From: an uncultured Methanomassiliicoccales archaeon
Lineage (GTDB): Archaea > Thermoplasmatota > Thermoplasmata > Methanomassiliicoccales > UBA472
Length of the DNA stretch: 64,000 nt
Assembly: GCA_963695345.1 (NCBI GenBank)
Contig: OY968769.1
Location: 896,001 to 960,000, forward strand
Direction of reading: 5' to 3'
The notes under the pieces are model-generated. The model was given only the letters and a program-made list of their open reading frames with translations. It ran no database searches and was not told where the DNA came from. Positions within the stretch are counted from its first letter, which is position 1; each line of letters opens with the position of its first letter. Below are positions 21,807 through 41,767 of the stretch, one piece after another. The position numbers and the translations under genes are program-made.

Positions 21807-22610
21807 ATGACCGCCTCCAAAAAGGAGCTGAGAGTGTTCACCGCCTCGCAGGAAGCCTTGTGGATAAATTCGACCCTCATATGCGGGGAGCGCGACGCAA
21901 TACTCATTGACGCCCAATTCACCCTCAGCGACGCCAGAAAGCTTGTCACTATGATCAAGGAAAGCGGCAAGAATCTGAGCATGGTCTACATCACCCACCA
22001 TCATCCTGACCATTATTTCGGCCTTCAGGAGATCGTTAATGCCTTTCCCGATGCCCAGATCCTTGCCCAACCCACCACCGTGGAGAGCATCAAGAAGACC
22101 TGGAAGGGCAAGGTCGAGCAATGGGCCCCGGTATACGGGAACAACATCACCACCGCCCCGGTCATACCCAAACCGATGAGCGGAATGGTGCTGGAACTCG
22201 AGGGGGACATGTTCCCCATCTACATGAACGCCCAGGGAGATGACCATGGTAACTCCTACGTGTGGATACCTTCGCTCAACGCCGTCATCTGTGGAGACAT
22301 CGTGTACAATGGTGTCTATCCCTGGACGGCCGATACCACACCGGCGGACAGAAAGGAATGGATAAGGACGCTGGAAAAGATCGAATCGCTCAACCCATCA
22401 ATGGCAGTGGCGGGGCACAAGGACCCTGCCAAGACCGATGACCCTTCCTGCATCCGATTCATGAAGGAATATCTGAGATACTTCGATGCGGCGATCATCA
22501 CGTCGAAGACCGCGGATGAGCTGAAGGCTACTGTGAAGAAGAAATTCACCGGGCTCGGCCTGGAGGTCATACTGAACATCTCTTCAGGAGTGGCTTTCCC
22601 ATCGAAGTGA
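21807..22610 (+). CDS. MBL-fold metallo-hydrolase
   Basis: ILIDAQF, THHHPDHYFG (HxHxDH), GDIVY and VAGH; TATA-like TTTTATA upstream. Confidence 0.88.
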   Translation: MTASKKELRVFTASQEALWINSTLICGERDAILIDAQFTLSDARKLVTMIKESGKNLSMVYITHHHPDHYFGLQEIVNAFPDAQILAQPTTVESIKKTWKGKVEQWAPVYGNNITTAPVIPKPMSGMVLELEGDMFPIYMNAQGDDHGNSYVWIPSLNAVICGDIVYNGVYPWTADTTPADRKEWIRTLEKIESLNPSMAVAGHKDPAKTDDPSCIRFMKEYLRYFDAAIITSKTADELKATVKKKFTGLGLEVILNISSGVAFPSK

Positions 22611-22878
22611 GGCAGGAGACATTCCTTCCGATAAGGTCAAGCATCGACGATGGGCTCGCCGCCTTCCAAGCGAATGGTGACTCGTGAAGTCACGGGACCT
22701 GTCATTGTCACCACTGTTCCCGATTTCCGAAGGCCCTTCAGTTCTAAAGTAGTGTTTCTCCGATGCGTGGTTGGTCCTCCCAGGCGCTAGCGGTTATCGA
22801 CTGCGTCGGTGGCAGTGGACCGATTAAGGGAAATGTAATAAACGGAGTCCGCATTGGCAGGCATCGTCGGAGCATAAC

Positions 22879-23838
22879 ATGGCAAGCCTTCATGTCAAAC
22901 TATTGGCGGTCGGATTGGTCGCTATACTCATCGTCGCCTCTGTCTACATCGTCGTGTCTCCCAAGGAACAGAGTGCTGACAAGATCCGGATCGGGGTCCT
23001 CCCGGTCATCGATACACTACCTCTGTATGCAGCCCTGGAAAGGGGATCGTTCCAACAGGCCGGACTGAATGTCGAGCTGGTCCAGTTCGGGAGCGCACTG
23101 GAAAGGGATTCGGCCATGGTGGCTGGCTCGATAGACGGCTATTTCGGAGACATGGTGAACACGATCCTCCTGAAATCATCCGGTCAGGACGTGAAGGTTA
23201 TGACCATCGATTACCACACGAACCCCCAGGCTCGCATGTTCGGTCTGCTCGCTTCCCCTGCCAACAACGTTTCAGATATCAATTCCACGATCGGAATGTC
23301 GGTGGCCACCTCCTCAGCGACGGTCACCGAGTACGTTCTCGACAATATCCTGGCGGAGAACAATATGACCGGAAAGATCAGCAAGACGGAGGTCAAGGCG
23401 ATCCCGATCCGTTACCAGTCATTGATGCAGAACAACGTCCAACTCGCGATATTGCCCGAACCCTATGCCACCCAGGCGATCCAGGGAGGGGCCCACTTGG
23501 TGGCGGACGACAGGACGATCAATATCACAGCCACCGTGATCGGCATGAAGGCAGGATTCATAACCAGCCACATCGATGATCTGAAGAAGCTGCTCAAGGC
23601 GTACAACGACACCGTCCAAGCGATAAACCAAGACCCGACCCAATACTATGATGTCTTGGAAAAGGACATCGGATTCCCGAAGGCGCTGGAAGGCAACTTC
23701 ACCTTCCCAGTCCTGAGCAGCACCTCGCTCCCGTCACCGCAAGAATTCCAGAAGGTGCTGGATTGGATGACCGCAAAGGGAATCGTCCAAAGTCCGGTCG
23801 CGTATGATGCCATAGTCGCCGAAGAGCTATACCCGTGA
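22879..23838 (+). CDS. ABC transporter substrate-binding protein, NitT/TauT (SsuA/NMT1-like) family, N-terminally anchored
   Basis: TM anchor then IRIGVLPVIDTLPLYAALERG...GLNVELVQF...AGSIDG and LPEPYAT. Confidence 0.87.
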   Translation: MASLHVKLLAVGLVAILIVASVYIVVSPKEQSADKIRIGVLPVIDTLPLYAALERGSFQQAGLNVELVQFGSALERDSAMVAGSIDGYFGDMVNTILLKSSGQDVKVMTIDYHTNPQARMFGLLASPANNVSDINSTIGMSVATSSATVTEYVLDNILAENNMTGKISKTEVKAIPIRYQSLMQNNVQLAILPEPYATQAIQGGAHLVADDRTINITATVIGMKAGFITSHIDDLKKLLKAYNDTVQAINQDPTQYYDVLEKDIGFPKALEGNFTFPVLSSTSLPSPQEFQKVLDWMTAKGIVQSPVAYDAIVAEELYP

Positions 23839-23842
23839 GCGC

Positions 23843-24577
23843 ATGATAAACGTCGAGCATCTGTCCAAGTCATATGAAGGAGGTTTCCAGGTCATCGATG
23901 ACCTGAACTTCGCAGTGGAAAAGGGCAGGTCCTTGGCGATAATCGGGCCTTCTGGGTGTGGCAAGACCACCCTCCTCTATATCCTGGCGGGGCTCACCCG
24001 GAGGTCTGCCGGCACAGTTACCGTGGAGGGAAGGTCGGTGGACGGTCCCTCGACGGAGGTCTCGTTCATCCTCCAGGATTTCGGCCTCCTGCCTTGGAAG
24101 ACGGTCCTTGAGAATGTCTGTCTGGGCATGAAGCTTCGCGGTACTCCGCCGGAAGATCGGGAGAAAAAGGCTGACGTACTGCTAGAGGAACTTGGCCTGA
24201 AGTTGCACCAGGACCACTATCCGGCTAGGCTGAGCGGAGGAGAGCGGCAAAGGGTTGCGATCGGCCGGGCACTTGCCACGGAACCGAAACTGCTCCTGAT
24301 GGATGAACCGTTCTCTTCGTTGGACACGCTGACCAGGGAGCGGATGCAGGAAATGCTCCTGGAGATAAGGAAGAGGAACGGACTGACGATGGTGGTGGTC
24401 ACCCACAGCATAGAGGAGGCGGCATTCCTGGGAGATTCCATCCTGGTCCTCGGCGGGCGCCCGTGCACCGTCCGGGCTATCCTGCAGAACCCGGGCGCTG
24501 GTACGCCAGGACACCGTGGCACTGATTCCTATTTCTCCACCTGCAAGGCCGTGAGGAAGGCGGTGGAGGGAATATGA
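23843..24577 (+). CDS. ABC transporter ATP-binding protein (SsuB/TauB-like)
   Basis: GPSGCGKTT, LLPWKTV, LSGGERQRV, LLMDEPFSSLD and VTHS. Confidence 0.95.
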   Translation: MINVEHLSKSYEGGFQVIDDLNFAVEKGRSLAIIGPSGCGKTTLLYILAGLTRRSAGTVTVEGRSVDGPSTEVSFILQDFGLLPWKTVLENVCLGMKLRGTPPEDREKKADVLLEELGLKLHQDHYPARLSGGERQRVAIGRALATEPKLLLMDEPFSSLDTLTRERMQEMLLEIRKRNGLTMVVVTHSIEEAAFLGDSILVLGGRPCTVRAILQNPGAGTPGHRGTDSYFSTCKAVRKAVEGI

Positions 24578-26208
24578 ACAAGCAAAGGGCGTTCGGCTAC
24601 CTACTATCGTTGGCAGTTGGCCTGATGGCCTGGAAACTGGCATCGCTCCTGGTCTCATCGCCGATACTCCCCAGCCCCGAGACCACCTTCCAGGCATTCA
24701 TAGACACCGCTCAGACCGCTCTGTTCTGGTCCAATTTCGGTATCAGTGCCTATCGGGTCATCGTCGCCATCGCCCTCGCCTGGTGCTTGGCATTTCCCCT
24801 GGGCATCTTCATCGGCTATAGCCAGAAGATGGACCGCTACTTCAGTCCGCTGATCTTCCTGACCTACCCGATCCCCAAGATGGTGTTCCTGCCGGTTCTA
24901 TTCGTGTTCTTCGGCATTGGCGATACCACCAAGATACTCCTGATCACGCTCATCGTTTTCTTCCAGATACTGGTGGCGACAAAGGAAGGTGTGAGCGCCA
25001 TCGACCGCAAGTATATCGATTCGATGCGGTCCATGAACGCCACGAACAAGGACATCTTGAAAGAGGCGATCATACCGGCTGCGCTTCCGAGCAGCTTCAC
25101 CTCCCTCAGGATCGTCACCGGGACCGCCATCTCGGTGCTCTTTTTCGCCGAGGCCTTCGCGGGATCGACCGGACTGGGATACTTTATCTATAACGCATGG
25201 GGGCTCCTTCAGTATACCCAGATATTCGTGGGCATCATCGCCATGAGCATCCTGGGATTGGCTTTGTATGAGATCTTCACCTTCATGGAACGAAGACTTT
25301 GCAGGTGGAAGGAGGTCCCGGAGGGGACTGAGGACGTCACGGACGATCGGTCCGCACTGATGAAGATAACCGCCTATGCGCAGATGATCAAACTGAGCCA
25401 TAGCGTGTTCGCGGTACCCTTCGGATTGGCGGCATTGGTGCTGCTGGCCAAGGACAATGAAATCACCTTCGGGATGGTCTTCTGGATAGTCCTGGCGATC
25501 ATAGGGGCGAGGTCGGCGGCGATGGGCTTCAACCGGGTGGTGGATGCGAAAATTGACGCCAAGAACCCCCGGACCAATATGAGGCACATTCCGTCGGGGA
25601 CGCTCACGATGCGGGAGGGATCGTTCTTCGTCATGGTGTCTGCCGCGGTGTTCGTCATGTCCGCCGCCATGCTGTCTCCCTTATGCTTCTGGCTATCCTT
25701 CCCCGTGCTGGGAATAGTGATGGGATATTCATATGCCAAGCGGTTCACTGCCGCAAGCCACCTGATCCTGGGGATCTCCATCGGCCTGATGCCCCTGGGG
25801 GCCAGCGTGGCCGTGACCGGGACCATTCCCCTGGGGATACTCGTGCTCGGCCTGGCCCTGACCACATACATCGCCGGCTTCGACATACTCTACTCCTGTC
25901 TGGACATCGATTTCGATAAGAAAGAAGGCCTGTGGTCGTTGCCCTCCAGGCATGGCGTCATGAACGCCCTGGTGATCTCGTCGGCCCTCCACGTTGTCAG
26001 TCTGGCGGCCCTGGCGGCATTGTTCTGGATATATACTTTGGGAGCGGTCTTCCTGATCGGGGTAGCGGTGATCGGGGCGATGTTCGTATTGGAACATATG
26101 CTGGTCCGTCCGGCCGACCTGTCCAAGGTGAACGTGGCGTTCTTCAACGTCAACGCCGTGATATCGATCCTGGTGTTCGCATCCGTCCTGTTGGGAGTGT
26201 ACGCATGA
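24574..26208 (+). CDS. fusion of SsuC/TauC-like ABC permease (aa 1 to about 247) and UbiA/MqnP-like aromatic prenyltransferase (aa 263-544)
   Basis: Permease motifs ILPSP, PIPKMVFLP, IIPAALP and GLGYFI, then MIKLSHSVFAVPF, ARSAAMGFNRVVDAKIDAKNPRT, YSYAKRF and GFDILYSCLDIDFD in one reading frame. Confidence 0.85.
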   Translation: MNKQRAFGYLLSLAVGLMAWKLASLLVSSPILPSPETTFQAFIDTAQTALFWSNFGISAYRVIVAIALAWCLAFPLGIFIGYSQKMDRYFSPLIFLTYPIPKMVFLPVLFVFFGIGDTTKILLITLIVFFQILVATKEGVSAIDRKYIDSMRSMNATNKDILKEAIIPAALPSSFTSLRIVTGTAISVLFFAEAFAGSTGLGYFIYNAWGLLQYTQIFVGIIAMSILGLALYEIFTFMERRLCRWKEVPEGTEDVTDDRSALMKITAYAQMIKLSHSVFAVPFGLAALVLLAKDNEITFGMVFWIVLAIIGARSAAMGFNRVVDAKIDAKNPRTNMRHIPSGTLTMREGSFFVMVSAAVFVMSAAMLSPLCFWLSFPVLGIVMGYSYAKRFTAASHLILGISIGLMPLGASVAVTGTIPLGILVLGLALTTYIAGFDILYSCLDIDFDKKEGLWSLPSRHGVMNALVISSALHVVSLAALAALFWIYTLGAVFLIGVAVIGAMFVLEHMLVRPADLSKVNVAFFNVNAVISILVFASVLLGVYA

Positions 26209-26241
26209 TCATGACCGCTCGGAAGCCGCCGTCACAGGGAT

Positions 26242-26961
26242 GTGAATGACTTGGAACTGGACAAGAACCCGCAAAGGATCGAAGGACTGTTCGACGACAT
26301 CACCCCCACGTATGATCGCCTGAACCATCTGATGTCCATGTCCATCGACCGGATATGGAGGGGACAGGCGCTGGACTGCCTCGGGCTCAAGGATGGCGAT
26401 CTCGTCCTGGACATTGCCACCGGAACGGGAGACATGGCGATACAGGCCCTCACCCGGGCGGACTGTTCCCTGGTGGGCATCGACCTCTCCCGGAACATGC
26501 TCGATATTGCGGTCAAGAAATGGCAGAAGAAAGTTCCTGGATCGGCATTCCCAGCCGTCCAGGGCAATGCACTATCGATGCCGTTCAAGGAAGGGACGTT
26601 CGACAAGGCCATGGTCGCTTTCGGCATCAGGAACGTTCCGGATGTCGGGGCTTTCTTGACAGACGTGCACCGGGTGTTGAGACCGGGTGGCCGTTTCGTG
26701 GTGCTCGAGCTGTCCGTGCCAGTTTGCCGGATAACCCGGCCGCTGTTCCTTGTCTATCTGACGCAGATACTGCCGCTCATTGGAAGCATGCAATCCGGAG
26801 ACCTGCCCGCCTACCGCTACCTGAGCGATTCCATACTTGCCTTCCCTACGCCGGATGAGCTGGAGAAAACGATGGTCTCCAAGGGGTTCAAGGTCGTCCG
26901 CTCAATATCACAGACCCAGGGCATCTGCCACCTGTATGTGCTGGAGAAGGAGGGCCAATAA
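26242..26961 (+). CDS. menG: UbiE/MenG-family demethylmenaquinone C-methyltransferase
   Basis: FDDITPTYDRLNHLMS, VLDIATGTGD, FGIRNV, RVLRPGG and AYRYLSDSI. Confidence 0.9.
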   Translation: MNDLELDKNPQRIEGLFDDITPTYDRLNHLMSMSIDRIWRGQALDCLGLKDGDLVLDIATGTGDMAIQALTRADCSLVGIDLSRNMLDIAVKKWQKKVPGSAFPAVQGNALSMPFKEGTFDKAMVAFGIRNVPDVGAFLTDVHRVLRPGGRFVVLELSVPVCRITRPLFLVYLTQILPLIGSMQSGDLPAYRYLSDSILAFPTPDELEKTMVSKGFKVVRSISQTQGICHLYVLEKEGQ

Positions 26962-28769
26962 TGCACTATCGCAACCTGACCGAATTCATTTCCCGCCTGG
27001 AGAGGGAAGGGGAACTGCTCCGTGTGAAGGCCGAGGTGTCGCCTCATCTGGAGATAACGGAAGTTACGGACCTCATGTCCAAGAACCCGAACGGAGGCAA
27101 GGCATTGCTTTTCGAAAAGGTGACTGGCTCGTCGTTCCCGGTGCTAACCAACGCCTTCGGGTCGGAACGGCGGATGGCCATGGCGCTGGGCTGCGATACC
27201 TTGGACGATCTCGAGATGAAGATCGGAGGCCTGCTCGACACCAAGCCGCCTGAGGGATTGGTAGGGAAGCTGGGAATGTTGCCTGAGCTGCTGTCCCTTT
27301 CAAAGGCGTTCCCACGGACCAAGAGGAGCGGCCGAGCCCCCTGCCAGGAGGTTGTGGTCACGGGCGATGCCGTAGACCTTAGCGTGATACCGGTCCTTCA
27401 TTGTTGGCCCAAAGATGGGGGCCGATTCATCACTCTGCCGGTGGTGTTCACCAAAGACGTCGAGGGACATTCGAGGAATGCCGGAATGTACCGCATGCAG
27501 ATATTCGACAAGAACACGACCGGCATGCACTGGCACATCCACAAGGATGGCCGCCACAACTTCAACGGCTACAAGAGGCTGGGGAAGAGGATGCCGGTGG
27601 CGGTGGCCATAGGAACTGACCCATCGATCACCTACGCCGCCACCGCGCCGATGCCGCAGGGGATCGACGAGATGATCCTGGCCGGGTTCATCCGCGGTTC
27701 GCCCGTGGAAATGGTCAAGTGCAAGACGATCGACATGGAAGTCCCAGCGGAATCGGAGTTCGTCCTGGAGGGGTACATCGACCCGGAGGAGAAGCGTGTC
27801 GAAGGACCGTTCGGTGACCACACCGGATACTATTCGCTCCAGGGGGAGTATCCGGTCTTCCATGTCACGGCAATGACCCATCGCCGGAACGCTGTTTACA
27901 GCGCCACGGTAGTGGGGAGGCCTCCGATGGAGGACTGTTATATGGCAAAGGCCACAGAACGTGTGTTCCTACCCCCCCTGAAGAAGATCCTGCCGGAGAT
28001 CCTCGACTACTGGATGCCTTGGGAGGGCGTCTTTCATAACATCGTCGTGGTGGCCATTCAGAAGGAGTACCCCATGCAGGCCCGCAAGGTCATGAGCGCG
28101 TTGTGGGGCAACAACCAGATGAGCTTTGCCAAGATGATCGTGGTGATCGACGATCCAACGCTTCTCCGCAACCCCGCCCAACTCCTGGAACGGATCCAGA
28201 ATAACCTGGACCCAGCCCATGACCTGGTCCTGACCGAGGGAGTCCTGGACGTGCTGGACCATTCTGCCCCCGATGCGTTGTTCGGAGGTAAACTGGGCAT
28301 TGACGCCACGGAGAGGGTGGAAGGTGAGCCCTCCAGGTCGTCTCGGCATGAAGGCCGTCTGACCGATGAGGACATTCGGGCCACGATAAGAGGACTGAAT
28401 ATCCCGGCAGCGTCAAGGTCGGTCGGCCTGAATTCCAGGAACCCGTTGGTGCTGATCGGGGTCAGAAAGGAAGGGGGAAGCTCGAAGCACGTAAAGGAGA
28501 AGTTCAGGCCGATGGCGTCGAGTCTAGGATGCACAATAGTGCTGTACGACGACATCGACCTCAATGACGATTCGCTGGTGCTCTGGAAGGTCTTCAACAA
28601 TGTAGATCCCCGCAGGGACATCGAGCTGGATGGTGACGGGGCGATCGTCGACGCCACCAAGAAGGGACCGGCCGATGGATATAAACGGGAGTGGCCCGAC
28701 GAGATCGAGATGTCAGAGGACGTCAAGGATAGGATACAGCAGAGAAGGAAAGAGTTAGGCCTGGGATGA
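26961..28769 (+). CDS. UbiD-family menaquinone biosynthesis decarboxylase (MqnL-like, long form)
   Basis: WPKDGGRFITLP, RNAGMYRMQ, MHWHIHKDG, EGPFGDHTGYY, VGRPPMED, LDVLDHS, GGKLGIDAT; second C-terminal repeat NNVDPRRD...DATKK. Confidence 0.92.
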   Translation: MHYRNLTEFISRLEREGELLRVKAEVSPHLEITEVTDLMSKNPNGGKALLFEKVTGSSFPVLTNAFGSERRMAMALGCDTLDDLEMKIGGLLDTKPPEGLVGKLGMLPELLSLSKAFPRTKRSGRAPCQEVVVTGDAVDLSVIPVLHCWPKDGGRFITLPVVFTKDVEGHSRNAGMYRMQIFDKNTTGMHWHIHKDGRHNFNGYKRLGKRMPVAVAIGTDPSITYAATAPMPQGIDEMILAGFIRGSPVEMVKCKTIDMEVPAESEFVLEGYIDPEEKRVEGPFGDHTGYYSLQGEYPVFHVTAMTHRRNAVYSATVVGRPPMEDCYMAKATERVFLPPLKKILPEILDYWMPWEGVFHNIVVVAIQKEYPMQARKVMSALWGNNQMSFAKMIVVIDDPTLLRNPAQLLERIQNNLDPAHDLVLTEGVLDVLDHSAPDALFGGKLGIDATERVEGEPSRSSRHEGRLTDEDIRATIRGLNIPAASRSVGLNSRNPLVLIGVRKEGGSSKHVKEKFRPMASSLGCTIVLYDDIDLNDDSLVLWKVFNNVDPRRDIELDGDGAIVDATKKGPADGYKREWPDEIEMSEDVKDRIQQRRKELGLG

Positions 28770-29118
28770 GCCTGCGGCCAATGGTGGCCCAATGGACGGC
28801 CCCTTCTCCTGCCTCGGATCGAGGATCAGAAACCATGTCGTGGATGGCTCTACACTGATCTAGATCGATGCCGCCCTGCTTCTTCTTGCACATGGACGAT
28901 TCATCACGTTGAGGGAACCATTGGCTGACCGGTTTGGACGAGCCAGCAAACGATGGACAGGATATGTTTTGTAAGAAGAGGGCCGATGACCAGCCGTTTC
29001 CTTCCCCTGTTTCTCAACTTCTATCTCCCATTGGGGAGCTGCGTCCGCCCGTTCCATTGCAAACCAATAAATGGCATGGGAAGTGTAGAATTCCTACCTG
29101 TTAAGGAAATTCGGTGGA

Positions 29119-31062
29119 ATGAACATGGACAACGATCTGCCTGATATCGAATCAGTTGAGTGCCTCAGGGTCCCGATCAAGAAGTTCAAGCCCGATGAGA
29201 TCGAGGAAAAGGTCAAGGAACGGGCATTGGACAAATCGACCCAAGATGTCCTGAGAAAGACGATGAAGGAGGGTACCGATACCGTCTGGGACCGGTTCGA
29301 AAGACAGCAACCCCAATGCAAGTTCTGCACCGAAGGGATATCCTGCCAGCGATGTGCCATGGGACCGTGCCGTCTGATGGGCGGCGACCGCACCAGGGGA
29401 GTATGCGGCGCCGATGCCGACCTGATGGTGGCCAGGAACCTTCTGGACACCATGGCGACGGGCGCCGCCTCCCATTCGGACCATGGAAGGGAAGTGGTGG
29501 AGACACTGCTGAAGACCGCCCGGGGCAAAGCACCCGGTTATGCCGTCAAGGATGAGGAGAAGCTGCAAGCATTGTCCACGGAATATGGTCTGCCCGACTC
29601 TGACCCCATCAATGTAAAGGCAGAGAAGCTGGCATTGGCCATGCTGGAGGAGTTCGGGACCATTAAGGGAGAGATGCAGATGCCCAACCGGGCACCTCAG
29701 GCCTGCATCGACCTCTGGAGGGCGGCAGGCATCCTGCCCCGCAGCATAGACCGCGAGGTGGTCGAGGCCATGCACCGGGTCCATATGGGCGTCGGGGCGG
29801 ACTATTCCGGCTTCCTTCTGCAAGGGATGAGGGCTTCGATGGCCGACGGCTGGGGCGGTTCCATGATGGGTACGGAGATATCGGACGTCCTTTTCGGAAC
29901 ACCGACCATAAAGAGCTCGAAGGTCAACCTGGGCGTGCTCAAACACGACCAGGTGAACATATCCCTGCATGGCCACAATCCGATCCTATCGGAAATGATC
30001 GTCAAGGTGGCCAGCATGCCGGAGATGATCGCCCGCGCGAAAGCAGTGGGTGCGAACGGCATCAATCTGGTGGGGCTGTGCTGCACCGGCAACGAACTCC
30101 TGATGCGAAAAGGCATACCCCAGGCCGGTAACCATCTGGACCAGGAAATGGTCATCACCACCGGTGCGCTCGAGGCCATGGTCGTCGACTACCAGTGCAT
30201 CTTCCCCACCCTGGCGAACACCTCCTCCTGCTACCATACGATGCTGTTCACCACCTCTCCCAAGGCGGTCATTCAGGGCAGCTATTTCGTCGAGATAACT
30301 CCGGAGAACGCTTTCGAGCAATCGAAGAAGATAGTCGCCGCCGCCATCGACAACTATCCCAACCGGGTGAAGGAAAGGGTGCTGATACCGGACGCGCCGG
30401 TCGACGCGATGGTGGGGTTCTCGGTCGAGTCCATAAGGAAGGCCTTGGGAGGTAGTCTGAAGCCCTTGCTGGATGCCGTCGTTTCGGGCAAGATCAGAGG
30501 ATGCGCCGGCATCGTTGGCTGCAATAACCCCCGGATCAAGCATGACTACGGCCATGTCACGCTGGCCAAGGAATTGATCAAACGGGACATACTATGTGTG
30601 GAGACAGGTTGCTCGTCCATCGCCTGCGCCAAGGCGGGACTGCTTCAGCCGAGGTCGATCGACCAGGCCGGAAAAGGATTGCAGGAAGTATGCGGTTCAT
30701 TGGGGATTCCGCCGGTCCTGCACATGGGATCCTGCGTCGACAACAGCCGGATCCTGGCACTGGTGGCGGAGTTGGCCAGAACGGCCGGAGTGCGTATCGA
30801 CCAGCTTCCGGTGGTGGGGGCGGCTCCAGAATGGTACTCTCCAAAGGCGGTTGCGATAGGGGCGTATTTCGTGGGCAGCGGAGTCAGCGTCTGTCTCGGG
30901 GTGATGCCCCATATCGGGGGAAGCCATAACGTGATCAAGACGCTGACGGAGGACCTGGACGGATTGGTCCATGCCAAGTTCTGGGTGGAGCCGAGCCCCC
31001 TGAACGCCGCGGCCTTGATGTCAGACCACATCGAGATGAAGAGGAAGGCCCTGGGAATGTGA
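29119..31062 (+). CDS. cooS: anaerobic Ni-dependent carbon monoxide dehydrogenase catalytic subunit
   Basis: CKFC...CQRCAMGPC...GVCGA; HSDHGRE; C-cluster ligands in HGHNP, GLCCTGNE, GCNN, TGCS and GSCVDN; WYSPKA. Confidence 0.93.
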   Translation: MNMDNDLPDIESVECLRVPIKKFKPDEIEEKVKERALDKSTQDVLRKTMKEGTDTVWDRFERQQPQCKFCTEGISCQRCAMGPCRLMGGDRTRGVCGADADLMVARNLLDTMATGAASHSDHGREVVETLLKTARGKAPGYAVKDEEKLQALSTEYGLPDSDPINVKAEKLALAMLEEFGTIKGEMQMPNRAPQACIDLWRAAGILPRSIDREVVEAMHRVHMGVGADYSGFLLQGMRASMADGWGGSMMGTEISDVLFGTPTIKSSKVNLGVLKHDQVNISLHGHNPILSEMIVKVASMPEMIARAKAVGANGINLVGLCCTGNELLMRKGIPQAGNHLDQEMVITTGALEAMVVDYQCIFPTLANTSSCYHTMLFTTSPKAVIQGSYFVEITPENAFEQSKKIVAAAIDNYPNRVKERVLIPDAPVDAMVGFSVESIRKALGGSLKPLLDAVVSGKIRGCAGIVGCNNPRIKHDYGHVTLAKELIKRDILCVETGCSSIACAKAGLLQPRSIDQAGKGLQEVCGSLGIPPVLHMGSCVDNSRILALVAELARTAGVRIDQLPVVGAAPEWYSPKAVAIGAYFVGSGVSVCLGVMPHIGGSHNVIKTLTEDLDGLVHAKFWVEPSPLNAAALMSDHIEMKRKALGM

Positions 31063-31250
31063 AGGGGACCGGGGCGCACCCAAGGAGATTGAGGCCGCTC
31101 CCTGACTATTAGAGACGGAATGATTAGGGAAACCCATGGCGATTATTGACCGGCACGAGTTAACTATTGCTACGACCCAGATGTAAAATCGAGCAATTAT
31201 TGAGGGTTGTTTCGATAATGCTTTGAACAAATGACAACATACGATGTTAC

Positions 31251-31976
31251 ATGACCGATTATGCCGAGAGTTCGAGGAAGATGGTCGAAATTCTTGGATT
31301 GAAATATGAACCCGTAGCGGTAACACTGATCAGGAAGGGACAGCCGCTTCCGGAAGGCATCCCGGAACCGGAGAAGGCCGTTAGGCACTGCCAATCAGTC
31401 ATGAGGGCGAGAAAAGGAGAATGCCTGCTGGTCCCGGCAAGCAAGCATGCGTGTCCGGTAGGGGCATCGGCCCTGGGCCTTGTACCCGTCCCTGAAAAGG
31501 TCGCCTCGGGGCAATTCCATTTCGGGCTGGGAATGTACGAGAATGAAGCGGCGGCGAAGCACACCATGGATGTCAGGCCGACGTTCGATGAGAATAGCCT
31601 GGACGCAACCCTTGTGTGCCCGTTGAGCAAGGCCACAAGCCCTCCCGACGTCATAATAGTCACGGGCACCCCGGAACAGCTGTACTGGCTTATTCCCGCC
31701 GCCTCGACCTATGATAAAGGAGGAAGAATCACGATCGAAATGGCGTCATTCCAAGCCAGCTGCGTGGATTCCACCATACTTCCGTACAAGACCGGTGTCC
31801 CTCACCTATCTCTCGGCTGTTATGGATGCAGGAAGAGCACGGACATCGCTCCAGAAGAGATGTTATTGGGATTCAAGGCAGACACCCTCGAACGGACCGT
31901 GGAAATATTGGAGAAATTGAAGGAAAAGGCGATCCCTTCCTGTCGGGATAGACCGGCGGCCCATCCAGCCAAATAA
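31251..31976 (+). CDS. DUF169 family protein
   Basis: LGLKYEPVAV, HCQ, ACPVGASALG, PDVIIV, ASC and SLGCYGCR pattern. Confidence 0.85.
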   Translation: MTDYAESSRKMVEILGLKYEPVAVTLIRKGQPLPEGIPEPEKAVRHCQSVMRARKGECLLVPASKHACPVGASALGLVPVPEKVASGQFHFGLGMYENEAAAKHTMDVRPTFDENSLDATLVCPLSKATSPPDVIIVTGTPEQLYWLIPAASTYDKGGRITIEMASFQASCVDSTILPYKTGVPHLSLGCYGCRKSTDIAPEEMLLGFKADTLERTVEILEKLKEKAIPSCRDRPAAHPAK

Positions 31977-37832: not shown

Positions 37833-38555
37833 CTACTCGGAAAGCACCCTGGTGGCGCGGAACGAGGCATGGTCGAAAAGCAATGAGAAGTAGTTTCCAG
37901 CATGGTTGGTGGAACGCATCTTTACCACCCGGATGCGGCGCTGAACATCGGTGTCCCCGATCTCCGCCATCTTCAGCAATATGACCCCGTCCGCCAGGTA
38001 CGCCTCGTCCCGGTGGTGGCAGTTATACTGGTCCGGGTTGCACTCGGATATCAGGAAGCAGGTCACGCCCATTCCCCGGAGCCACTCGAACATGTAGAAC
38101 AGTTCCGCCCTTCGTTCCTCCGGCTTCATCTGCGCCGCCATCTCCAGGACGTCGAGCGAGTCCAGTATCAGGATCTCATAGCCGAGGGAGGTCTTCAGGT
38201 TCTCCGCGTACATCTTGAAGACCTGCATCCAGCTACCTTTTGCGGACAGTTGCGTCAAGGATTTCCTGATGATGCCCAGGTCAAGAACGTTCACCGTGTC
38301 GCGGACCAGGTCCGGGTTCATGCCCATCGATTCCATCTGCTGATTCAGGCCTTCCCGGGACTGCTCCAGAGTCATGTAGAGCGATCTTGTGCCGCTTTTC
38401 AAGGCGTTCTGATAGATTATTGAGTAAGCGATCGAGGACTTCATGGTTCCTGGCGCACCCGCTAGAAGAACCAGATGCCCTTTGGGAACGCCTCCTCCCA
38501 TATTCTCGTCAAGGTTCTCGATGAAGGTCTTAACTCGCGAAATCTGCATTCCCAC
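37833..38555 (-). CDS. KaiC/RAD55-like RecA-fold ATPase (single domain)
   Basis: GGVPKGHLVLLAGAPGTMKS, ILDSL, YLADGVI and VVKMRST. Confidence 0.9.
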   Translation of the reverse strand: MGMQISRVKTFIENLDENMGGGVPKGHLVLLAGAPGTMKSSIAYSIIYQNALKSGTRSLYMTLEQSREGLNQQMESMGMNPDLVRDTVNVLDLGIIRKSLTQLSAKGSWMQVFKMYAENLKTSLGYEILILDSLDVLEMAAQMKPEERRAELFYMFEWLRGMGVTCFLISECNPDQYNCHHRDEAYLADGVILLKMAEIGDTDVQRRIRVVKMRSTNHAGNYFSLLFDHASFRATRVLSE

Positions 38556-38641
38556 CGCTCCCTTTTTCCAAGAAATTGTCGCCCGATGTTTTTAATCTAT
38601 GTTTCCAAATGTCCGACACTGGTAATCATTTTCGATACCCA

Positions 38642-40192
38642 TCAGTGATCGACTATCGGTATGGTGAGGTTGAAATGTTCCCCGTCATGGAACATCGCGT
38701 AATAGCGGGTGTCAACGTTCATCCCGCGCAGCTTGGGACAGCGCACCCATCTCTGCACCTTCGACTCGTCCAGCTGCCTCATCAGTATCTCGATGGCCCC
38801 ATCCGCCAGATACAGTTCGCTATCCGCGCTATCCACCAGCTGGTCCATCGGCTTCTCCGAGATCAACATCACGGTGATGCCCAGGGATTTGAACCAATCG
38901 AACAGGTCCTTGAGGTCCTGGCGGGTGAACTCATGATCGGAAACCGCCTTGAAGGAATCGAGGGAATCGAGCACGAAGATGCGGAAAGGACGCTCGGCGA
39001 ATACGTTCTTGACGTACCGCAGGAGTATCTCCCTCCAATCGCCTTTGGAGGCTTCCATCTCCTTGCGCAGGTCGACCATGTCGACCACCATCATGTGCTC
39101 GACGGCATGGGGCGATGGCATCTTGAGCCGGCCCATCTGCCTCAATATCGAGGCCCGTGTCTGTTCCAATGAGAAGTACATGGAACTGACCCCATCGTAC
39201 AGGGCGGCATTGTGGAGAATGGTATAGGTGAGGGTGGACTTCATGGTACCGGGGGCACCATTGACCAGTATGACGTGCCCTTCTGGAATGCCTCCGCCCA
39301 GAATGGTGTCGAACTTCTCGATGTGAGTGTGGATCGTCCTATCCGGGCCTGACGCGGGAATACCGGCCCCGATCTGTATGTCCAGCTCCGGTCGGACTAT
39401 CCTCACCAGTTCGGCCACCTTCGCCTTGATGTCGGCGCGGGCGTCCTCCTCCTCCCCCTCCATCTTCTCGCCGATGGTGCATCTGACCTCTGCCTTGACC
39501 AGCCGATGAAGCTCCACGATCTGATTGGTGGCCTCGGCGAGCTGCTGCTTTGCCAGCTTGAGCTCCGAGGTCAATCTGTCCTTCTCGGTCAGCTTGGCCT
39601 CCAGTTCCTCTTCGAGGGCTTTTTTCAGCTTGACCTTCTCGTTCTCGATCGCCGCCCCGTACTTCTTCCTTATGTCATCCAGCTTCTGGACGTCGGCGGC
39701 GGTTATGCGCGAGGACTTCAGCTTGTCCTCCAGAATCATGATCTCCTGTATGCCCTTGTCGAACTTCTCCGACATGAGCTCCAGCTCCTGCTCCTTCTCC
39801 CGGATGGACATCTCCTTGCATTTGATCATTGTCTGATCGGACTCGAACTGCCTCACCGATTCCTCAAGCTGATTCTGGTCCTTCTCCATCTTGTCGAAGG
39901 TGTCCCGCATCCGCTTTTCCTTCTCGATGATCGCCTTCTCCCGGGCGGAGATCTCCTTGTCCTTTTCCTCCAGCATCTTCCGCAATTTGGACAATGATGT
40001 GAAATCCGACGAATCCAGACGGATCTGGGTCTGCTCCTCGGCGATGACCTTGTCAATAACGATGTTGGAGGGCATATCCCCCTCTCTCTGTGAACGGGGG
40101 TCGATCTTCCTCAGCATCTCTCCGCAACGGTCACATTGGATGTCGTTCGGTTTTACCCCTGAACCGCACCGCGGGCACTCGTATTTTGACAT
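38642..40192 (-). CDS. zinc ribbon + long coiled-coil + KaiC/RAD55-like ATPase
   Basis: CPRC...CDRC; about 200 aa E/K-rich heptad region; GGIPEGHVILVNGAPGTMKS, VLDSL and CPKLRG. Confidence 0.88.
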   Translation of the reverse strand: MSKYECPRCGSGVKPNDIQCDRCGEMLRKIDPRSQREGDMPSNIVIDKVIAEEQTQIRLDSSDFTSLSKLRKMLEEKDKEISAREKAIIEKEKRMRDTFDKMEKDQNQLEESVRQFESDQTMIKCKEMSIREKEQELELMSEKFDKGIQEIMILEDKLKSSRITAADVQKLDDIRKKYGAAIENEKVKLKKALEEELEAKLTEKDRLTSELKLAKQQLAEATNQIVELHRLVKAEVRCTIGEKMEGEEEDARADIKAKVAELVRIVRPELDIQIGAGIPASGPDRTIHTHIEKFDTILGGGIPEGHVILVNGAPGTMKSTLTYTILHNAALYDGVSSMYFSLEQTRASILRQMGRLKMPSPHAVEHMMVVDMVDLRKEMEASKGDWREILLRYVKNVFAERPFRIFVLDSLDSFKAVSDHEFTRQDLKDLFDWFKSLGITVMLISEKPMDQLVDSADSELYLADGAIEILMRQLDESKVQRWVRCPKLRGMNVDTRYYAMFHDGEHFNLTIPIVDH

Positions 40193-40219
40193 TATGAGAC
40201 TCCAGACTCTGCTCTGATC

Positions 40220-40936
40220 TCACTCTGATATCACTCTGGTCACCTGGAACTTGCTGCTGTTGTACAGCAGCGAGTAGTAGGAAGGATCATGATTGGTCTC
40301 CCTCATCTTGACGCAGCGTATGCGCCTCTGACTCTCCACGTCCCGGATGACCTGCATCTTAAGAGTGATGATACCGTCCGACAGATATCCTTCGTCGAAC
40401 TTACCGTCCATCATCCTTTCCGAGGATGATTCGGAGATGAGGAAGACGGTGGCGTCGAGGTCACGCAGCCATTCGAAAAGGTAGAATAGCTCCGTCCTCC
40501 GGTTGGTTATCTCCGCCATCGTTTCCAGCACCTCCAGGGAATCGATGACCAGGATGGAGTAATTCATGTTCTCCTTGAGGTTGGAAAGATATGATTTGAA
40601 AACGTGCAACCAGGAACTGCCCGCCGATATCTCCTTGAGCTTTTTCCGGATGACCCCGAGGTCGAGGACGTTCAGTTGGTCCTTGACGCTGTCGGTGTGC
40701 ATGCCCATCTTCTCCATCTGCCGGAGAAGGGACTCCCGGGATTGCTCCAGCGTGACGTAGACGGAGCAGGCGTTGTTCTCCAGGGCATGGTTGTACAGCA
40801 TATAGTACGAGAGCGATGACTTCATTGTACCCGGAGTTCCTGCGAGGAGAACGATATGGCCGGTGGGAACGCCGCCCTCCAGTATCCTGTCAAATCCTTC
40901 GATATAGGTCTTCAGCCTTCCGTTCACATTTTCCAT
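40220..40936 (-). CDS. KaiC/RAD55-like RecA-fold ATPase (single domain)
   Basis: GGVPTGHIVLLAGTPGTMKS, VIDSL, YLSDGII and CVKMRET. Confidence 0.9.
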   Translation of the reverse strand: MENVNGRLKTYIEGFDRILEGGVPTGHIVLLAGTPGTMKSSLSYYMLYNHALENNACSVYVTLEQSRESLLRQMEKMGMHTDSVKDQLNVLDLGVIRKKLKEISAGSSWLHVFKSYLSNLKENMNYSILVIDSLEVLETMAEITNRRTELFYLFEWLRDLDATVFLISESSSERMMDGKFDEGYLSDGIITLKMQVIRDVESQRRIRCVKMRETNHDPSYYSLLYNSSKFQVTRVISE

Positions 40937-41050: not shown

Positions 41051-41767
41051 TCAACTGGTGCCCCTGACCACGACCTTGCGCACATATCCTTTGGCGATCT
41101 CCGCCATGGCCCGGATCTTCTCCTCTGGATAGGGCGAGACCAGCTCCATTTTCTTCTCCAGGGTGGAATCGTTCTTGAACTGGTGCAGAGCGTATTTCTT
41201 GGACCCGCCGATGTAAGCGGCGATGGACTCGATGTCCTTCTCTTCCAGCAGGAACGGTACCACGGTGGTGCGGAACTCATGATCTACGCCCGAGTTCATC
41301 AGAATTAGTATCGAACGCTTGACCGCTTCAATATCTGGATTCACTCTCACTATCTCATGGTACTTCTCGTTCAGCGGAGCCTTGATGTCCATGGCGACAT
41401 AGTCGAGCATTCCGGAGCCAAGCAGGTCCTCCAGCATTACCGGGTTGGAGCCGTTGGTATCCAGTTTCACTTTCATTCCCAGGTCCCTGATCTTCGCGAT
41501 CAGTATCGGCAGGTCGGGATGGATGGTGGGCTCCCCGCCGGAGATCGCTATGCCGTCCAGGAAGTCCGCGTTGTCCCTGATGTAATCGGCGATGTCCTCG
41601 AACTCCAGCTCATCGAACACCGGCTCCATGGGGATCAGGTCGGGATTATGGCAGTATAAGCAGCGCCAGTTGCATCCCTGAAGATAGATGGTGGCCACCA
41701 CGTGTCCGTCCCAGTCGAGCAGGGATGTCTTGGAGAAACCGACGATCTTGAGACCCATCGATTCCAC
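41051..41767 (-). CDS. nrdG: anaerobic ribonucleotide reductase activating radical-SAM protein
   Basis: GCNWRCLYCHNP, SGGEPT, KLDTNGS, DYVAMDIKAP and EFRTTVVP. Confidence 0.88.
   Translation of the reverse strand: MESMGLKIVGFSKTSLLDWDGHVVATIYLQGCNWRCLYCHNPDLIPMEPVFDELEFEDIADYIRDNADFLDGIAISGGEPTIHPDLPILIAKIRDLGMKVKLDTNGSNPVMLEDLLGSGMLDYVAMDIKAPLNEKYHEIVRVNPDIEAVKRSILILMNSGVDHEFRTTVVPFLLEEKDIESIAAYIGGSKKYALHQFKNDSTLEKKMELVSPYPEEKIRAMAEIAKGYVRKVVVRGTS

Follow-up and report, generated by a model that had tools for sequence, protein, structure and literature searches.

A predicted quinone head-group salvage cassette with a permease-prenyltransferase fusion in Methanomassiliicoccales archaea

Background

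The closest described relative of the system reported here is the late part of the futalosine route to menaquinone. In the sections of Ravcheev and Thiele (2016; PMC4746308) that concern it, a late module of MqnP, MqnL, MqnM and MenG is predicted from genomes and said to need experimental verification, and organisms with only these late steps are said to have to import soluble precursors, the transporters for which were then still unannotated. This report concerns a cassette of five genes at positions 22879-28769 of a 64,000-nucleotide stretch of DNA from an uncultured Methanomassiliicoccales archaeon (assembly GCA_963695345.1, contig OY968769.1). The stretch, called the window below, is C1:896001-960000 of the single 2.56-Mb contig of this genome. 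The cassette encodes a substrate-binding protein, an ATPase of the ATP-binding cassette (ABC) type, a permease fused in one frame to a UbiA-family prenyltransferase, a MenG/UbiE-type methyltransferase and an MqnL-type decarboxylase of the UbiD family.

The likeness to the late futalosine module consists in a UbiA-family prenyltransferase standing beside a UbiD-family protein of the TIGR03701 type, in the presence of MenG, and in a UbiX-type flavin prenyltransferase encoded in the genome. The differences are that the host of the cassette is without MqnA-E, that the prenyltransferase is fused to an ABC permease, and that a binding protein and an ATPase belong to the operon. Besides, the archaeal cassette is without UbiX and has MenG in its place, whereas a bacterial cassette (metagenome locus L025) includes UbiX.

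The transporter part is to be compared with importers of the NitT/TauT group (TauABC, SsuABC, ThiXYZ and those of the PqqT type). It shares with them a binding protein of the SsuA/TauA fold, a TauC-type six-helix permease with an EAA loop and a TauB-like ATPase; it differs in missing all curated equivalog cut-offs for sulfonate, taurine and nitrate, and in bearing a biosynthetic enzyme at the C-terminus of the permease.

Auxotrophy for quinones or their precursors, with uptake of 1,4-dihydroxy-2-naphthoate (DHNA) or menaquinone, is described for bacteria in the relevant parts of PMC4746308 and of Fenn et al. (2017; PMC5738691), the latter showing quinones to act as growth factors for gut bacteria with incomplete pathways. 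The likeness is that late steps are kept and the ring comes, or here would come, from neighbours. The bacterial cases follow the classical MenA route without an identified transporter, whereas the present one has an Mqn-type route, an operon-encoded candidate importer and a methanogenic archaeon as host.

For the order itself, the portion of Borrel et al. (2014; PMC4153887) dealing with electron carriers lists ispA, a MenA-like ubiA and ubiE, and proposes that the Fpo-like complex passes its electrons to a lipid-soluble carrier, left undefined there. An earlier sequence-only reading of the window had stated that Methanomassiliicoccales are usually described as lacking a membrane-soluble carrier, which in the light of this proposal was overstated. 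The carrier proposed there and the product considered here have in common that each would be a prenylated lipid accepting electrons of the Fpo-like complex. The genes, as far as that portion names them, are distinct: the cassette stands apart as an Mqn-like module of bacterial type that brings its own importer and is present in 15 of the 151 genomes of the order.

Our literature search, in which subscription journals were thinly covered, found neither a quinone-precursor transporter nor a description of a permease-prenyltransferase fusion. What is new here is an importer that is encoded with a prenyltransferase, and fused to it, across bacterial phyla and methanogenic archaea.

Results

The permease half of the fusion protein matches BPD_transp_1 over residues 74-242; hydropathy gives six transmembrane helices, with a K/R-rich coupling loop at 137-177, between helices 4 and 5. 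Eleven diverse fused homologues, when aligned, all have D149, S150, S153, P168, A170, L171 and P172 in this loop. A charged linker of about 38 residues separates the permease from the UbiA domain, which covers residues 281-527 (PF01040, E 1.5e-47). Both Asp-rich motifs of that domain (N320, D324, D328 and D444, D448) are likewise invariant in the 11 diverse fused members, and they fall into predicted cytoplasmic loops, the first of them K/R-rich by hydropathy. Such a topology, crude as the prediction is, would be expected of a permease ending in the cytoplasm and of a prenyltransferase with its active site facing the cytoplasm. A search with the 544-residue fusion gave 617 matches at E <= 0.001 among 8000 scored candidates, and in all 120 among the matches listed both BPD_transp_1 and UbiA are present at full length or nearly so. 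The linkage of transporter and quinone genes is kept to the point of translational fusion.

Among curated models the UbiA domain is closest to ubiA_other and MqnP; it scores 265 bits on TIGR01475 (ubiA_other; cut-off 180.8), only 98 bits on the proteobacterial UbiA model, and has no MenA match at E <= 0.001 in NCBIfam. The methyltransferase matches PF01209 (E 1.7e-55) and passes TIGR01934 (219.6 against a cut-off of 158.35) and, narrowly, NF001244 (216.8 against 216). The decarboxylase passes the TIGR03701 equivalog "menaquinone biosynthesis decarboxylase" of the SCO4490/MqnL type (633.3 against 495.9) and fails the true UbiD model PRK10922 (399 against 788). Its C-terminus is extended by about 150 residues, as in its bacterial relatives typically, and this extension is seen beside the UbiD core in bacterial loci; its relatives are 597-629 amino acids (aa) long.

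The three-part set of a NitT/TauT importer is complete: an SsuA/NMT1-fold binding protein, a BPD_transp_1 permease with the EAA loop and an ABC ATPase. The ATPase matches ABC_tran (PF00005, E 1.5e-33), its best NCBIfam matches being TauB-like and all of them under the equivalog cut-offs. The cassette proteins stay under the cut-offs of the models specific to sulfonate, taurine or nitrate systems: TauB (221 against 357), TauC (115.6 against 342), SsuC (115.5 against 347) and NtrB (81 against 209).

The binding protein matches the Pfam families NMT1_2 (E 4e-14) and NMT1 (E 8e-14); on SsuA_fam it reaches 69.8 bits, under the cut-off of 163.5. An AlphaFold2 (AF2) model built on a 37-sequence alignment (mean predicted local distance difference test score, pLDDT, 92) shows an N-terminal helix (residues 2-26) linked by a disordered tether to a binding fold of two lobes that starts at residue 36, and there is no cysteine for a lipobox. 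On this model, and with the lipobox cysteine missing, we take the protein to be an anchored extracytoplasmic receptor. Its neighbours in Foldseek are SsuA 2x26 (TMq 0.76), TauA 6ssy, ThiY 3ix1, PqqT 9b1u, thiamin binders and NrtA/CmpA, at 13-20% identity and TM 0.6-0.78. A search of the PDB by sequence returned one match, the uncharacterised 3qsl. The modelled fold, then, names the family of the binding protein and not its ligand. By analogy, the family can accept carboxylated aromatic ligands, as PqqT binds the carboxylated quinone pyrroloquinoline quinone (PQQ). Residues R178, Ser72, Ser145, F70, F121 and W296 are among those invariant in the 37 homologues. The protein has no paralogue in the genome of the window, and in the loci read it accompanies only this cassette. 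MqnA and MqnD share the periplasmic-binding fold, and the protein was considered as an enzyme of that kind; this was rejected, as it has no PF02621 match at E <= 0.001, carries an N-terminal anchor and adjoins a full ABC system.

The full-length fusion is found in 15 of the 151 genomes of the order, namely the genome of the window, five of its seven congeners and, in a second family, nine of 24 genomes; another congener, the sixth, is 55% complete and shows a piece of the fusion where a contig ends. Exactly these 15 genomes, and no others of the 151, have an MqnL above its cut-off. Both families, diverged to 66-68% identity, have kept the cassette; it is an accessory of two lineages and not an order-wide trait. 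The gene order binding protein, ATPase, fusion, MenG, UbiD was read by tblastn in the genome of the window and in 11 archaeal genomes besides, four of the loci L011-L021 appearing a second time as L005-L008. For two further genomes, G037 and G048, judged by coordinates alone, a gap of 806 bp between the fusion and MqnL fits menG.

A metagenome scan with patterns from the UbiA half gave 80 loci, nine with fused and 71 with unfused UbiA genes. The binding protein and the ATPase lie directly upstream in all nine fused contigs. Seven of these have at least 1 kb downstream, and in four of the seven an open reading frame (ORF) of 199-210 aa is followed by UbiD; this ORF of about 200 aa is UbiX in L025, the sole contig where it was scanned. 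In 18 of the 71 unfused loci an MqnL-type UbiD stands beside the UbiA gene. In view of the same order in 11 other archaeal genomes, and of the transporter-UbiA part in nine metagenome contigs, the five genes are not a chance grouping. The conserved linkage looked for by the sequence-only reading was thus found, both as a fusion and in the coincidence of the fusion with MqnL in the same genomes. A frameshift or an assembly error has broken the binding-protein gene of one fused metagenome locus (L029:4595-5541) into ORFs of 160 and 157 aa.

The absence of mqnA-E, which the same reading had noted for the window, extends to the whole 2.56-Mb genome. PF02621, which covers MqnA and MqnD, has no match there, and its cut-off is passed in none of the 151 genomes of the order. 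The best scores in the genome of the window are 25.4 bits for MqnC (cut-off 428), 29.7 for MqnE (435) and 51.9 for MenD (244); MenB has no match in it, nor in any of 21 genomes, 15 with the cassette and six without. Control genomes matched as expected in each of these searches. The known ring-forming routes, both futalosine and classical men, are absent from the genome of the window. As regards bacteria, the annotated flanks of the fused contigs L022, L024 and L025 (the flanks only) hold no mqn ring genes; they hold genes for a flagellar motor, a sigma factor, OmpA and a sigma-54 activator. Two ORFs of about 335 aa score below the PF02621 threshold (22 and 19 bits against 26) at G075:C138:9907-10377 and G051:C15:94069-94533, in cassette-bearing genomes and on contigs other than that of the cassette; they are probably other binding-fold proteins.

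UbiX, which the sequence-only reading proposed to look for, is present outside the cassette at C1:88813-89346 (TIGR00421, 206 bits against 108.9), but it is a housekeeping gene. It is single-copy and above the cut-off in 141 of the 151 genomes of the order regardless of the cassette, to which it is therefore merely available. A second UbiD-family gene, not of the MqnL type, accompanies UbiX in this genome (C1:263690-264881), and the two probably form a housekeeping pair; the archaeal mevalonate pathway uses a UbiD/UbiX pair. This second gene is split in the genome of the window and whole in relatives.

A further UbiA paralogue of 311 aa lies at C1:54438-55370 and has weak MenA-like scores (91 bits against 277; TIGR00751, 49 against 102). 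Within the genus its identity is just 61%, and the adjoining upstream ORF (234 aa) has no family match. At E <= 1e-30 it is found in 20 of the 151 genomes of the order, a threshold too strict to give the distribution of so fast-diverging a gene. It is likely the "ubiA" of the list in Borrel et al.

The order as a whole gives a hint of a prenylated lipid tied to the Fpo-like complex. A gene for polyprenyl diphosphate synthase shares the strand of fpoH and is 6.9-7.8 kb distant from it in each of the 21 genomes; in G065 (L115, C1:1273500-1291500) the order is fpoA-N, polyprenyl synthase and a geranylgeranyl-reductase-like flavoprotein. This position of the synthase at the end of the fpo operon suggests that these archaea may use a prenylated lipid with the complex, in agreement with the carrier proposal as worded in the part of Borrel et al. 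2014 cited above. The fpo region of the genome of the window (C1:881070-893000) is just upstream of the window, and within the genus the cassette is about 30-38 kb away from it.

As regards origin, the named non-archaeal homologues of the fusion, among the matches listed, are bacterial: Thermodesulfobacteriota, Syntrophorhabdaceae and Spirochaetota, at 50-54% identity. Relatives of the binding protein occur in Syntrophorhabdales and in Pseudodesulfovibrio senegalensis. The nearest non-archaeal UbiDs, at 57-62% identity and of similar length (about 600-617 aa), belong to Syntrophaceae, Syntrophales, Syntrophobacteraceae (including Syntrophobacter fumaroxidans MPOB), Desulfobacterales and Spirochaetota. 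An unrooted maximum-likelihood tree, built rapidly from 94 UbiA-domain rows, took in 41 of 119 full-length fused database proteins, eight metagenome loci with the fusion and 45 of the 70 unfused loci whose match was long enough. The window falls into a starred clade of 13 fused rows that includes sequences named Methanomassiliicoccales and Methanomassiliicoccus, and all fused archaeal rows, the named ones and those nearest to them, are in this one clade. Fused and unfused UbiA interleave in the tree, where the starred branches force at least three changes and parsimony counts eight; it follows that fusion or fission took place more than once, and that the fused domain is an ordinary member of the UbiA group. 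In a sample of 401 genomes of the phylum the fusion is matched at E <= 1e-60 only in the genome of the window and in one other genome of the order. From the bacterial homologues, the single archaeal clade and this rarity we favour the acquisition of the whole cassette from bacteria followed by its retention in two archaeal lineages, a direction of transfer that we infer with an unrooted tree. The donor was probably among syntrophic Desulfobacterota-like lineages.

The cassette is under purifying selection. Pairwise ratios of nonsynonymous to synonymous substitution (dN/dS) against four congeners are 0.07-0.13 for each of the five genes, with dS of 0.8-1.9, near saturation, so that the ratios are rough. 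Its chromosomal place is variable. A congener without the cassette, G043, has the flank gene of the metallo-beta-lactamase (MBL) fold and the CooS gene in the same order, and its slot (L114, C3:59000-67000, corresponding to window 22610-29119) encodes two Rieske proteins, a ferredoxin-thioredoxin-reductase-beta-like protein, a radical S-adenosylmethionine (SAM) protein and a 419-aa UbiA-family protein; neither the radical SAM protein nor the 419-aa UbiA has a counterpart in the genome of the window. The slot seems to swap prenyltransferase-containing cassettes.

The features of the cassette are collected in Table 1. The five genes are co-oriented and tightly packed: in order, the ORFs are spaced by a gap of 4 bp, an overlap of 4 bp, a gap of 33 bp and an overlap of 1 bp, and non-coding stretches of 268 bp and 349 bp lie before and after the cluster. 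The TATA-like box may be an archaeal promoter. Coordinates and the Pfam and NCBIfam models agree in every item with the gene types given in the sequence-only reading. The host is, as supposed there, a methanogen, a McrA-bearing Methanomassiliicoccales archaeon, with McrA (972 bits) encoded on the same contig as the cassette.

Table 1. Features of the cassette and its upstream region (window coordinates)
Feature	Position	Strand	Remarks
A/T-rich TATA-like box	22832..22843	+	36-47 bp before the first ATG; read from the sequence
Substrate-binding protein, 319 aa	22879..23838	+	N-terminal membrane anchor, then SsuA/TauA-type periplasmic-binding fold (predicted)
ABC transporter ATPase, 244 aa	23843..24577	+	PF00005; without extra regulatory domain
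Permease-UbiA fusion, whole ORF, 544 aa	24574-26208	+	Two domains, one frame
Permease domain of the fusion, residues 1-255	24574..25338	+	TauC/SsuC-type, six predicted helices, conserved EAA coupling loop
UbiA-family (MqnP-like) aromatic prenyltransferase domain of the fusion, residues 256-544	25339..26208	+	PF01040
MenG/UbiE-type C-methyltransferase, 239 aa	26242..26961	+	PF01209, TIGR01934
MqnL-type UbiD-family decarboxylase, 602 aa	26961..28769	+	TIGR03701

Directly downstream, at window 29119-31976, are the genes for CooS, the catalytic subunit of anaerobic CO dehydrogenase (TIGR01702, 651 bits), and a DUF169 protein, which are kept beside the slot in congeners. Farther on, three consecutive KaiC-family ATPase genes (240, 516 and 238 aa) occupy window 37833-40936 on the minus strand, and a radical SAM gene at 41051-41767 adjoins them. 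In the genome of the window fpoH (C1:888835-889735) and the fpoL-N region (C1:882000-888000) are split into short ORFs and are whole in relatives; its completeness score is 85% despite the single contig. With split genes outside the cassette and such a score on one contig, we consider indel errors in the assembly likely, and not real pseudogenes. The five cassette genes are intact, and their lengths agree with those of the orthologues.

Discussion

We believe, with somewhat better than even confidence, that the cassette serves to salvage a ready-made aromatic-acid head group, from which it makes a prenylated naphthoquinone (menaquinone or a near analogue). The proposed course is as follows. 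The membrane-anchored binding protein would capture a soluble ring compound outside the cell, our best guess being 1,4-dihydroxy-6-naphthoate or a related naphthoate, and the TauT-type ABC importer, composed of a dimer of the permease domain and a dimer of the ATPase, would bring it in. With the MqnP-like prenyltransferase fused to the cytoplasmic end of the permease, the substrate would be released beside the prenylation site and gain its polyprenyl chain there. The MqnL-type UbiD would then strip the carboxyl group, using prenyl-flavin mononucleotide (prenyl-FMN) from the housekeeping UbiX encoded elsewhere, and MenG would methylate the ring.

A number of points weigh against this proposal. 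The solved relatives of the binding protein, as distant as they are in sequence, bind sulfonates, pyrimidines, thiamin, nitrate or PQQ. Three MqnP "exception" models of NCBIfam score 228-236 bits on the prenyltransferase, the cut-offs being 375-430. The housekeeping UbiX lends the cassette no specific support. In G060 (79% complete, C4:6523-9013) there are, by the coordinates, only 68 bp from the fusion to MqnL and menG is not in between; in three of the seven fused metagenome loci mentioned above no UbiD is found within 1.8-3.1 kb downstream. Enzymes that would use a quinol were looked for without success: the genome of the window gave no match to cytochrome bd, NarI/HdrE-type cytochrome b or NrfD, the 151 genomes of the order none to VKOR and the 21 genomes none to Ni_hydr_CYTB; the search covered these families, SQR, NDH-2, succinate/fumarate enzymes and ETF-QO not being searched. 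The Fpo-like complex is the only candidate partner that we can name, and it is present in all 21 genomes, with the cassette or without it. If the fusion-bearing bacteria also hold mqnABCD, the importer is at most auxiliary there. Finally, the late futalosine steps were a genomic prediction when they were named, and the literature search described above found neither a later biochemical confirmation of them nor a report of 1,4-dihydroxy-6-naphthoate excretion by any organism.

The explanation that comes nearest keeps the architecture and changes the substrate: hydroxybenzoate or another (hetero)aromatic acid from soil or sediment would be turned into a prenylated phenol or a novel carrier other than menaquinone, for example a methanophenazine-like one. 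The fold and PDB searches fix no ligand, the MqnP-specific cut-offs are missed, and the UbiA domain scores 274 bits, under the cut-off, on PRK12888, a model of 4-hydroxybenzoate polyprenyltransferase; no classical quinol oxidase of the families searched is present in this genome. Nevertheless, we find such a substrate unlikely. The decarboxylase scores above the equivalog cut-off for MqnL and below the one for UbiD, and the fused UbiA interleaves with unfused ones, of which a part adjoin MqnL-type UbiD genes. MenG/UbiE enzymes act on quinol rings, and a ring derived from benzoate would need hydroxylases. The tolerance of the family is a point in favour of a different substrate, as UbiA-family enzymes can take unexpected aromatic acids, Ubi-297 with quinoline carboxylates being the example in PMC9235831.

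It could also be supposed that the ring is made in the cell by an undescribed pathway and that the ABC system serves some other end, for example to take up a sulfonate or pyrimidine, or to support or regulate the prenyltransferase. New quinone routes are reported still to be turning up (PMC11874023), and the nearest solved folds of the binding protein are sulfonate and taurine binders. We give this little credence, since archaea and several bacterial phyla share an in-frame fusion of an importer membrane domain with a prenyltransferase in which the coupling-loop and catalytic motifs are intact, and this makes an unrelated transported molecule hard to explain; besides, the binding protein fails the SsuA cut-off and keeps to this cassette in the loci read. 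Equally improbable, in our opinion, is that the cassette is horizontally acquired cargo outside the energy metabolism of the methanogen, its product being a membrane antioxidant or redox buffer, or the whole of it near-neutral. The patchy distribution, the variable slot with a different cassette in G043 and the absence of a quinol-oxidising partner among the families searched would agree with this. However, the five genes are intact and under strong purifying selection, they have been retained in two diverged families, and the polyprenyl synthase at the end of the fpo operon suggests that a prenylated lipid is used with the Fpo-like complex.

The salvage of an imported head group has survived all the genomic tests run and is the best-supported prediction from sequence. 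Of the import-and-finish proposal made in the sequence-only reading, the genomic expectations stood (no ring pathway, the presence of UbiX, conserved linkage); a quinol-oxidising partner was not found among the families searched, and the support from UbiX proved to be non-specific.

It is tempting to go farther and regard the two Methanomassiliicoccales lineages as head-group auxotrophs that scavenge a naphthoate from possibly syntrophic bacteria and build from it a menaquinone pool used with the Fpo-like complex. We put this forward as a tentative possibility, and rather doubt it than believe it. If it is true, a part of the energy conservation of these archaea depends on a cross-fed respiratory cofactor, and the permease-MqnP fusion, widespread among anaerobic Desulfobacterota, Spirochaetota and related groups, is the first importer dedicated to a quinone precursor. 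In any case the fusion is a concrete candidate for the soluble quinone-precursor transporters predicted in 2016, in the terms of the sections of PMC4746308 referred to in the Background, and its presence in both bacteria and archaea could explain how anaerobes without ring synthesis get their quinones. How electrons leave the Fpo-like complex would become directly testable if some lineages of soil, wetland and sediment make menaquinone from an imported ring, and this would also point to a nutritional dependency relevant to the cultivation of these organisms.

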